Positions 52,686 to 56,470 of a stretch of 63,767 nucleotides of DNA are shown one piece after another. A model generated the notes under the pieces. The model was not told the DNA's origin. It did no database searches and saw nothing but the letters and a program-made list of their open reading frames with translations. This stretch comes from Rhynchobatus australiae (taxonomy: Eukaryota), in contig JAUZTB010000048.1 in the NCBI GenBank assembly GCA_034780895.1, positions 16,167,615-16,231,381 of the forward strand, given 5' to 3'. Numbering within the stretch: position 1 is the stretch's first letter; each line of letters opens with the position of its first letter. The position numbers were made by a program, and so were the translations under genes.

Positions 52686-55600
52686 GATTATCGTACAAAA
52701 CCATTTTGCTGCAGCGCTTGTCCATTTGCATCCAAATTTTTTTCTGCCTACAAAAGCCATTTCAGAAATGTTCATAGTGAAGATTTTGAAAACAAAATCC
52801 TGATTAATTGCCCTTATTGCCCATACAATGCTGACAGAAAGACCCTGGAGACCCATATCAAGATATTTCATGTCCCTCTTTGGAAAGTACCTAGTGGAGG
52901 CAAGAATGCACACCATGAAAAGTCAAAGCAGGATAGCAATCTTAAACTGAAACATGCTGACAGTGTGGAACAAGCAGTCTATTACTGTAAGAAGTGTACT
53001 TACCGAGATCCGCTTTATGATGTTGTCAGAAAGCATATTTACAGGGAACATTTTCAGCATGTGGCAGCCCCTTATGTGGCAAGAACAGGAGACAAATCAG
53101 TGAATGGAACATTTTCTGCCACTAATGGAAGAGAGGATGGGACTGTGCATTGTAAACGTTGTCTCTTCATACCCAAAACTTATGAAGCCTTGGTGCAGCA
53201 TGTTATTGAAGACCATGAAAGAATAGGGTACCAAGTAACAGCAATGATAGGACATACTAATGTGNNNNNNNNNNNNNNNNNNNNNNNNNNNNNNNNNNNN
53301 NNNNNNNNNNATGACAAGCCCTTAGCTGCTGGAAATTATCAGAGTGTGAAAAGTTCAATGCAGCAGAATATGAATCGTGTATCTATGTCCAAAAACACAC
53401 AGAATTCTGCTGTCAATCTTATGTCGGGTAGTAGTCGTCTGCCACCAAAATATGCTGTTTCATCAATGGCACATAACTATTCTTTGGGTCAACAAATGAG
53501 GCTCCCTCTGCCAGGTGGTTTACCAGTTCCTCTTCAGCAGCGATCACAAACCGTAAAACAATTAATATCTGGTGGCAATGGACGGCAGTATGGAGTTGGT
53601 GCTGGTGAACAGAGGCGACCATCACAGATGCAATATAACGTTCAATCAGGAAGCTTGACTGGTAATAGTGGATCCAGTCAATTATCAATGAAACAGTCAC
53701 AATTCAGTATTTCTCAAGCACAAAGGATGCAAGGATTATCTACTTCATCAGTAAAGTCATTAGCTTCCCCAACAGGCCTAAGTAATTCTGCTAGCCAGAG
53801 TCCTGCATTGGCTGGGTCTGCTGCTCAGAAGTGGAAGATTTGCACAATGTGTAATGAGCTTTTCCCAGAAAGTGTGTACAGCATACACTTTGAAAAGGAG
53901 CATAAAGCTGAGAAGATCCAGGCTGTAGCTAATTACATTCAGAAGATCAATAGTTTCACAAGCAAATGTCTCTACTGTAACCGTTATTTACCAAGTGAAA
54001 CGCTGCTCAACCACATGCTTATACATGGACTCTCGTGTCCCTACTGCCGTTCCACTTTCAATGATGTTGAAAAGATGGCTGAACATGTAAGAATCCTTCA
54101 TATTGATGAAGAAGTGGGACCCAAGACTGAATCAACGTTAACTTTTGATTTGTCTACACAGAAAGGTAGCCGCAGTAATATACAGCTCCATGTTACTACA
54201 TACAGTACCTCTGAGAGTGCCTCTGTGGAGAATACAAATTATCGGCCCCAGAATCAGAACTTGGCATTTAGAAAGCCAGAAGGGCAGTTGCAGCAGCCGA
54301 AACCACAAGTCAAATCTAAAATAAAGCCAGATTTGAATTCTATACCTCAAACCCAAATACCCTATAAAAATGATGTTGGCAAAACCCTTTGTCCGTTGTG
54401 CTTCTCTATTTTGAAGGGCCCAATATCTGATGCTTTGGCACACCATTTGAGGGAACGACATCAGGTGATACAAACAATTCATCCAGTGGAAAAAAAGCTT
54501 ACCTATAAATGCATTCATTGTTTGGGAGTCTACACAAGTAACATGACAGCCTCTACCATAACGTTGCATCTGGTGCACTGTAGAGGTGTTGGAAAAGCAC
54601 AGAATGGCCAGGATCGAAGTCTTGCTCATGCCAAGGTAACACACTCACCAAGTGTAATGCCCATGAAACGAGAATATGAGTATGAATATGGGGACTTTGC
54701 TTTAATGAAAAAAAGGAAATTGGATGGTGAGGAAACTGTTCAGAGCTTTACCTTGGGAGAGGATAAACCAGAGGAGCCTGTAGTTTTAGCTATTGATCCC
54801 AAGGGGTATGAGGATGAGTCCTATGAGGCCAGAAAAATGTTCCTTACAAACTATTTTAACAAGCAACCTTACCCAAGCAGAAGGGAAATTGAAAAGTTGG
54901 CAGCTGGCTTATGGTTATGGAAATCGGATATTGCTTCCCACTTTAGCAATAAGAGGAAGAAATGTGTTCGAGATTGTGAGAGGTACAGGCCAAAGGTATT
55001 GCTTGGATTTAATATGATGGAGATGCGAAAAGTAAAGCACAATATGGACTTTGGGCCTACTTGGAATTTGCTAAATAACAAAGAAATAGATGGCAAGGAA
55101 CCTGCTACTTTAAAATCAAGCATGGAAAAAGTAAATCAGAAACTGGAGAAAGAAAGAAGAGATTTGAGTCTGGGATCAGAAAAATTGGAGGGAACTATTT
55201 TAGATTTGAGCTCCCAAATGGAGGAAAATTCAAATCCAAACTTGGGAAAGATGAAAGGGAGAGCTGTGAACCCGTGTTCAGAACGAATGGAGGGAACTGC
55301 TTTGGACTTGAGCACTCAGATGGAAGAAAGACCTTCAAACGCCAGCTCTGCAATGGTGGAGGGAACGNNNNNNNNNNNNNNNNNNNNNNNNNNNNNNNNN
55401 NNNNNNNNNNNNNNNNNNNNNNNNNNNNNNNNNNNNNNNNNNNNNNNNNNNNNNNNNNNNNNNNNNNGCCATTAGATTTGAGTGCTCAGATGGTAGAGGA
55501 AAGTCCTTCAATCAAGAGCACTGAGATGGTAGAAGAAAGTCCTTCAAATGTGAGTTCTGAGATGGTGGCAGAGAGTCCTTCAAATGTAAGTTCTGATATG

Positions 55601-56470
55601 GTGGAGGGAAGTGCTTTAGATTTGAGTTCCCAGATGGTGGAGAAAAGCCCTTCAAGCATGAGCGCTGAGATGGTGGAGGAGAGCCCATCTAATATGAGTG
55701 CTGACATGGTGGAAGCAAGCCCTTCAAATACGAGTCCTGATAATATGGAGGAAAATGCTTCAAATACTTGTGGTGGTGAAGATTTGTCATCAAGTGAAAT
55801 GAGTGGTTTGCAGAGTAGGGAAGAAACTTCTGAAATGGTTCCTGAAGAGTTCAATAATGAATTGCAAAAACCTGCATTTACAGAAACTGCATCATTAAAG
55901 GATGATGTTTCAAATATGGATGAAGAGCAGTATCCTGAGCCATCTTCAGAATCGAAAGATAAAGAATCAGAAAGTGAAGATTCAGAAGAACTTTCTGAAT
56001 GCAAAGATGCTGGTTCACCAGCTGAGGACGGACTAGTATCTCCACAAGCATCTGATCAGGAAGATGTTTCGTCTGAGCTGAAGCAAGAGTTTTGGATCAA
56101 ACGACCATGGACAGATGATGTATCCCAAAGTGAAGAGGAGGAAGAGCCCCCTCGGACCTCTGAACCAAAAGCTGCATTGGAAAATGACGAGCAAAATTGG
56201 GGAGAGGGGCCAGGTGAATGGAGTGGAACACCATTCCAAAATGAAGGAGAAAAGTGGGCCAAAGAACGGTCTGAATGGAAGAATGTTTCACCAGAAAATG
56301 AGGAAAGTTTGTCTAATCCGTTGTTAGAATGGCAAGGTAACACAGCAGATAGTGAAGGCGAGGAGCTTGATCAGCTCCTCGATCAGTCAAATGACGGTCT
56401 CTCCGATAATGTGGCAGAACCTGTTTGTGGATCTTCATCAGGTGTTGGGTTAAGTAGTCAACCTGCATAA
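52686..56470 (+). CDS. ADNP: ADNP large terminal coding exon: nine zinc fingers, NLS, homeodomain, PxVxL motif, repeat insert, acidic tail ending GVGLSSQPA* (two N gaps inside)
   Basis: tttcag acceptor, then [14 protein letters not shown]. Zinc fingers run from CCSAC..HFRNVH to CIHC..HLVHC; KKRKLD NLS; homeodomain [55 protein letters not shown] 52674..55475 and ORF 55274..56470 join across the 100-N gap at 55368-55467. Confidence 0.95.
55185..55770 (+). repeat. Coding minisatellite in ADNP, ~36-bp (12-aa) degenerate unit, about 13 visible copies
   Basis: Recurring gagatggt(g/a)g(a/c)(g/a)ga(a/g)agtccttcaaat units; protein units [12 protein letters not shown] and [12 protein letters not shown]. 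Confidence 0.9.

Follow-up and report, generated by a model that had tools for sequence, protein, structure and literature searches.

A four-fold xLDLS motif array in the ADNP tail of rays and sharks as a candidate CtBP-docking segment

Introduction

Mutated ADNP ranks among the major genes of autism, and the protein serves as scaffold for ChAHP, a complex that silences transposons; its C-terminal tail is usually regarded as unconserved. Here we describe a stretch of 63,767 nucleotides from the ray Rhynchobatus australiae (contig JAUZTB010000048.1; the whole stretch is called the window), which contains an ADNP gene whose tail carries four pentapeptides of the xLDLS type, including one canonical PLDLS. 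The array is conserved among sharks and rays and is considered here as a probable multivalent docking segment for the corepressor CtBP.

The closest described system is ChAHP itself (ADNP-CHD4-HP1; PMC11293393), in which ADNP binds HP1 through a PxVxL motif, and ChAHP and ChAHP2 silence retrotransposons (PMC11293393, PMC10031977). The ray gene is orthologous and has the ADNP_N region, homeodomain, PxVxL position and three coding exons in common with this system, whereas its tail is longer and contains a 12-residue repeat with the four motifs, a motif type missing from the lungfish, tetrapod and gar records described below.

PLDLS or a close variant of it is a docking motif for CtBP, as in the viral proteins EBNA3C, with PLDLS, and EBNA3A, in which ALDLS and VLDLS act jointly (PMC2883600, PMC4150796). 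Elasmobranch ADNP has the same three pentapeptides, and non-canonical sites that may act together are a further likeness, but the viral proteins have one site or two, and in ADNP a host gene carries four that arose within a repeat. In RAI2, two ALDLS sites of about 5 uM each bind through their LDL core, and CtBP is polymerised and inactivated (PMC11187106). Repeated ALDLS, a disordered chain (predicted in ray ADNP) and similar linker lengths are seen in both proteins; in contrast to RAI2, which has two sites and no folded domain, ray ADNP carries four sites including PLDLS on a DNA-binding repressor. A further parallel comes from Drosophila, where Rhino is an HP1-family protein. Among the piRNA factors of the transposon-silencing network around Rhino, CtBP motifs have been gained in particular species, PIDLRS in Bootlegger and PLDLS in Deadlock (PMC12992792). 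Those gains are young, single-site and tested, whereas the candidate CtBP array of ADNP is old, four-fold and conserved. The parts (PxDLS motif, CtBP and ADNP) are thus all known already and the setting is new. Our search, which left most of the subscription literature outside, found no published report of CtBP motifs in ADNP, and the main texts of PMC11293393, PMC10031977 and bioRxiv 2025.03.06.641037 contain 0 mentions of CtBP (table S3 of the last could list CTBP1/2).

Results

Four xLDLS motifs in a coding repeat of ADNP

The window contains an intact ADNP gene with three coding exons, the last of which encodes all of the xLDLS motifs (Table 1). The nearest named orthologue is ADNP b of Pristis pectinata (P0054), to which the piece left of an assembly gap is 97% identical (residues 67-961) and the piece right of it 99% (residues 962-1294). 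Pfam matches and the identity to P0054 reveal the ADNP_N zinc-finger region, the homeodomain, the PxVxL and the long C-terminal tail of an ADNP orthologue. Matches resembling ADNP2 stop shortly past the PxVxL, unlike the long-tailed ADNP, and by these sequence features the window gene is ADNP and not ADNP2.

A preliminary description of this DNA had reported the four motifs with RRDLS just upstream, and all of them were found at their places in the window. From the composition of the region 0.01 LDLS would be expected by chance, as against the four found. The motifs are part of a coding repeat, in which generic units follow the pattern E-x-S-P-S-N-x-S-x-E-M-V and motif units the pattern E-G-[TS]-x-L-D-L-S-x-Q-M. 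DNA identity is 0.71-0.83 among the motif units and 0.46-0.75 between motif and generic units; judged from their sequences, the motif units share descent. Being related repeat copies, the four motifs do not represent four independent events, and therefore conservation among orthologues is the test that counts; this test was passed, as described below. The varying codons of LDLS had earlier been taken as a hint of protein-level selection. The codon variants are as described, but the argument is weak alone because the units share descent.

Linkers of 29, 18 and 43 residues separate successive motifs, and all 22 shark and ray species compared have nearly the same spacing from start to start (32-35, 21-23 and 48 residues). 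The repeat region is acidic (net charge -24 over 167 residues), contains no aromatic residue and has no Pfam match. From motif 3 onward the tail is predicted to be disordered, with a predicted local distance difference test score (pLDDT) below 50 for 259 of 333 residues, a stretch which covers motifs 3 and 4 only.

Two further candidates were rejected. TFDLS at 54141-54155 was not counted, being placed inside the ADNP_N domain and reading FDLT in bony vertebrates. RRDLS, earlier listed alongside the four motifs, fails as a fifth one since most orthologues read RRGLS, RRDLI, RRVLS, RRILN or RRNLI at its position.

The PLDLS codon and the assembly gap

A run of 100 N splits the frame in the window, leaving motifs 1-2 in one frame and motifs 3-4 in another, and the Pro codon of PLDLS stands beside the gap edge, which had been raised as a caveat. 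Eight sequencing runs were aligned to this region. One contig, of run X16, which shares its organism code with the best-matching run X1, connects position 55366 directly to 55468, and contigs of X2, X12, X17 and X18 together with 33 raw RNA reads from X21, with 24 different start points, bridge the gap in frame. Run X1 is without coverage across the gap, and X20 provides only a loose end compatible with the joint. Residues 961 and 962 of P0054 adjoin across the gap position with nothing between them, and no alternative letter in the CCA codon was seen in any run covering it. Because the joints skip the whole N run, the gap covers no sequence and the protein reads Gly-Thr-Pro-Leu-Asp-Leu-Ser. 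A base-call error in the Pro codon or a frameshift is ruled out by the bridging contigs and reads and by the continuity of the orthologue, and further repeat units beneath the 100 N are ruled out by joints that bypass the entire run. PLDLS at 55469-55483 is real. The X21 reads, from a related organism, are mostly first-mate-minus, as for a stranded library, which indicates transcription of the + strand. No indexed run with this sequence is catalogued as RNA, and the evidence for expression comes from these raw reads.

Seven N runs of exactly 100 bases each are present in the window (at 9176, 15420, 20483, 32588, 34515, 49543 and 55368), and the other six may also be placeholders of unknown length.

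Conservation in sharks and rays

For the comparison, one isoform each was taken from 22 named shark and ray species among the cluster members listed (15 of 23 and 15 of 17 in two large clusters); the tree did not include extra isoforms or 10 further proteins from Logan. Four xLDL[S/R] motifs are present in all 22 species. Nine of the 10 Logan proteins also contain all four, and the remaining one ends upstream of the motifs. The LDLS columns were fixed before any orthologue comparison. Parsimony on a FastTree tree places 1 change in the 16 LDLS columns and 207 in the 170 other columns (residues 880-1065), with permutation P values of 5e-6 by column and 1.8e-4 by 4-mer window, and the expectation that LDLS is more conserved than neighbouring repeat positions was thereby borne out. 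The sole change is S to R in Rhincodon and Stegostoma, giving PLDLR. Among the controls, the matching positions of six generic units underwent 17 changes in 24 columns (binomial P 0.0013) and the remaining positions of the motif units 33 changes in 32 columns, and a draw matched for residue type gave P 2.5e-5. The four motifs are selectively conserved across sharks and rays.

Near-invariant Ser-Pro pairs are also seen in the generic units (window 55496-55747) throughout the 22 species. These pairs between the motifs are possible sites for proline-directed kinases.

Distribution outside sharks and rays

An xLDLS-type motif after the homeodomain is found in 0 of 35 lungfish, tetrapod and gar ADNP cluster representatives, in which human ADNP is not a separate record. 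Together with the 22 of 22 elasmobranchs this agrees with the lineage-specific gain claimed for the array. Two holocephalan (chimaera) proteins keep the repeat with one ALDLS only. Among 50%-identity clusters, whose matches carry no species names so that lamprey and hagfish are not identifiable, the long matches have no xLDLS in the tail behind the homeodomain except for one LFDLS. Gain of the array, rather than loss, is the parsimonious reading of this unrooted comparison. On the same unrooted basis, the array likely began with a repeat unit P-S-N-x-S that turned into x-L-D-L-S and then multiplied, the chondrichthyan stem having a single copy and the stem of sharks and rays four.

A similar motif occurs in spiny-rayed teleosts, and cod ADNP reads PLNLS. 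With the motif-bearing cod segment as query, which may favour carriers, the matches listed (120 of 259) include 55 named acanthomorph Adnpb records, 42 of which carry PLDLS or PLNLS, and 33 other named teleost records, none of which does. This count excluded 25 rows without a species name, 6 non-teleost rows and one Lepidogalaxias record, and the two groups follow teleost taxonomy. The motif is present in Adnpb of Oryzias and absent from a Cyprinus record, a difference which would be of relevance to fish models. That the acanthomorph PLDLS might be homologous to the shark motifs was considered and rejected, with a best blastp E value of 0.01 (Oryzias) and no match for three other acanthomorphs. 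The acanthomorph PLDLS directly precedes an EPIAIDSD block common to motif-less teleosts. Because it adjoins this block and cannot be aligned to the elasmobranch motifs, the site is best read from its sequence as a separate gain.

In acanthomorph Adnpb (e.g. P0212, P0265) PLDLS abuts the conserved block EPIAIDSDS, which resembles a SUMO-interacting motif (SIM). The CtBP site of CBX4 is likewise located next to a SIM (PMC2808386). The closest match to cod (73%) is a record of Lepidogalaxias salamandroides (P0210) with the same PLNLS context. Such closeness is odd for the placement of that lineage.

CtBP in the same genome and published docking sites

Three complete-looking CtBP loci are present in the same ray genome (G000; C64, C87 and C17); mammals have two CtBP genes (PMC2749851). 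Shark CtBP1 (P0093) is 100% identical to one of the G000 CtBP exons, and its residues 43-131, which contain the N-terminal binding domain, are identical to the solved human protein (PDB 8ari). The array combines a consensus site or published variants, a predicted-disordered setting and conservation above its flanks with a candidate partner whose binding domain is conserved. That ALDLS can serve as a CtBP-binding variant is upheld by published ALDLS and VLDLS sites (PMC2883600, PMC11187106); ILDLS was not found among the variants in the cited sources. PLDLR is likely tolerated, as PIDLR is the CtBP-binding site of CBX4 (PMC2808386). Taken together, the residues allowed in the array (P, A, V or I before LDLS, and S to R once) fit published CtBP sites. 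The LSD1/RCOR and G9a/GLP/WIZ complexes are CtBP partners. Human ADNP co-purifies with both of them (bioRxiv 2025.03.06.641037), and G9a is described as a CtBP partner in PMC12809078 as well.

The HP1 side of the protein

The PxVxL of human ADNP is located at residues 819-823, and an ARKS motif is said to stabilise HP1 binding (PMC10031977). The preliminary description had coupled HP1 to the array through PKVLL about 65 residues upstream. Its position was confirmed, PKVLL preceding ILDLS by 64 codons; HP1 binding is suggested by this position only, and in comparison with ChAHP a correctly placed PKVLL is accompanied by ARKM rather than by the helper motif ARKS. ARKS is intact in only 6 of 36 bony-vertebrate records.

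Of 113 records scored for the Pro of PxVxL (Adnpb P0047, P0210-P0322), nearly all of them teleost, 94 are without this residue, as are 21 of the 36 records from bony vertebrates, P0008-P0043. Among motif-bearing Adnpb records, 49 of 56 are without it. Since this Pro is so often missing, the assumption that ADNP binds HP1 universally may not hold in full.

Discussion

The observed basis for a CtBP connection consists of the motifs and their frame, transcription in a close relative, elasmobranch conservation, absence from the examined lungfish, tetrapods and gar, and the three CtBP genes. Building on it, we favour, as probable, that the xLDLS array is a lineage-specific multivalent CtBP-docking segment which adds a CtBP corepressor arm to a ChAHP-like complex; binding of CtBP in some form, be it recruitment or the RAI2-like cross-linking discussed below, appears likely. 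The four motifs would fit the PxDLS cleft of CtBP and bring the corepressor to chromatin occupied by ADNP. As described for RAI2, each motif would use its LDL core to pair with strand beta2 of one CtBP subunit. The affinity of a single site is expected to be low (about 5 uM in RAI2); a set of four, spaced by about 34, 23 and 48 residues, would provide avidity on a CtBP dimer or tetramer. Combined with the CHD4- and HP1-binding parts of the protein, the array would then form the ChAHP-like complex with its CtBP arm.

Several observations weigh against this reading. The strict P-x-D-L-S consensus fits only one of the four motifs, and the disorder model has a shallow alignment of 17 close sequences. 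In six generic units the Ser-Pro pair changes as rarely as LDLS (1 change in 12 columns), so that the whole repeat is constrained and not LDLS alone, and the excess of invariant columns in motif over generic units (15 of 16 vs 16 of 24) is marginal (Fisher P 0.048). When codons are compared with those of one relative, among the rows listed, the motifs show 0 replacement and 2 silent changes and the other codons 17 and 14, a tally which is too small and underpowered for a test of the ratio of replacement to silent rates (dN/dS). At the ARKS position (window 54828-54839) all 24 cartilaginous fishes examined have ARKM. Among the matches listed the acanthomorph motif is lost or altered in 13 of 55 records and is therefore dispensable there. 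Finally, the tandem sites of RAI2 bind only about fivefold tighter and turn CtBP off (PMC11187106).

The stability of the Ser-Pro sites, about as invariant as LDLS, is also what would be expected if the repeat were an acidic spacer or a Ser-Pro phosphorylation array, with LDLS inherited and kept for another partner or by slow evolution and with no role for CtBP. The shared descent of the motif units and the slow evolution of elasmobranch ADNP (88-96% identity to P0054) are in line with such an explanation. Slow evolution, however, fails to explain the contrast within the units (1 change in 16 columns vs 33 in 32) or the residue-matched P of 2.5e-5, and it leaves unexplained why acanthomorphs gained this pentapeptide a second time. 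We therefore regard the spacer explanation as unlikely.

A different outcome is conceivable if CtBP does bind, namely that the array acts in the manner of RAI2 and cross-links CtBP tetramers into filaments or nuclear foci, sequestering the corepressor or forming a condensate at ADNP sites. RAI2 polymerises CtBP with two ALDLS motifs and a linker of 21 residues, and also with one of 10 residues (PMC11187106), and the linker lengths of the array, with their nearly fixed spacing in all 22 species, would be compatible with such cross-linking. Because the tandem sites of RAI2 inactivate CtBP, multivalency need not mean recruitment. The preliminary description had noted that CtBP oligomers favour multivalent partners, but polymerisation and inactivation of CtBP by tandem motifs (PMC11187106) had not been considered. 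On the other hand, ADNP differs from RAI2 in possessing folded domains and in acting as a repressor that binds DNA, the tandem ALDLS and VLDLS of EBNA3A recruit CtBP for repression (PMC2883600), and the acanthomorph gain is a single site, incapable of cross-linking. We consider such RAI2-like action doubtful, and the original interpretation of CtBP recruitment is partly supported.

PIAS1 has a VIDLT core and RNF4 has four SIMs (PMC3901395), and the four hydrophobic-Asp-Leu cores of the array, embedded in an acidic, Ser-rich tail of net charge -24 and including VLDLS and ILDLS as the forms nearest to VIDLT, could be imagined as SIMb-like motifs reading SUMO chains. This is very improbable. The likeness to VIDLT is partial, and the cores are strictly LDLS or LDLR in 22 species, never drifting to Ile/Val or Thr. 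By the residue preferences of SIMs it also counts against a SUMO role that two or three of the four motifs start with Ala or Pro and that the sole change, S to R, fits CtBP sites and not a DLT core.

Returning to CtBP docking, a bolder and rather speculative extension is that vertebrate ADNP acquired CtBP twice independently, by way of a four-site minisatellite cross-linker in elasmobranchs, which would polymerise CtBP tetramers at ADNP chromatin, and by way of a single PLDLS in acanthomorphs alongside a mostly lost Pro of the HP1 motif. If true, this twofold gain would be a vertebrate counterpart of the recurrent rewiring of CtBP in the Drosophila piRNA pathway. For CtBP docking as such, the elasmobranch array and the separate acanthomorph site would mean that the partner set of ChAHP differs between vertebrate lineages, and the array would be a clear case of a coding tandem repeat generating a multivalent interaction site.

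Features of the window

The coordinates of the ADNP exons, domains and motifs are collected in Table 1.

Table 1. Features of the ADNP gene and its motif array in the window
Feature	Position	Strand	Evidence or conservation
ADNP first coding exon (ATG to GT donor)	48680..48787	+	100% to P0054 (Pristis pectinata) residues 1-36
ADNP second coding exon	51696..51788	+	tblastn to P0054; AG/GT ends read
ADNP last coding exon (zinc fingers, homeodomain, tail, TAA stop)	52686..56470	+	single frame with gap closed; Pfam ADNP_N E=0
Homeodomain, Pfam-matched part	54837..54962	+	PF00046, 29.7 bits, cut-off 22.9
PKVLL, position of HP1-binding PxVxL motif	54990..55004	+	PKVLL in 23/24 cartilaginous fishes
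RRDLS	55155..55169	+	not conserved among orthologues
36-nt / 12-aa coding repeat, four motif units and seven generic units	55188..55747	+	behind homeodomain and PKVLL
Motif 1, ILDLS (VLDLS in most orthologues)	55197..55211	+	LDLS invariant in 22/22 species
Motif 2, ALDLS	55299..55313	+	all five residues invariant in 22/22 species
100-N assembly placeholder, no hidden sequence (two sides overlap by one base)	55368..55467	.	read joints; orthologue contiguous
Motif 3, canonical PLDLS (PLDLR in Rhincodon, Stegostoma)	55469..55483	+	read joints, orthologues
Motif 4, ALDLS (VLDLS in most sharks)	55613..55627	+	LDLS invariant in 22/22 species

Outside the coding exons, a CpG- and GC-rich island (GC 0.58-0.60) is located at window positions 23500-24500, some 24 kb ahead of the ATG of ADNP, and is probably the ADNP promoter.

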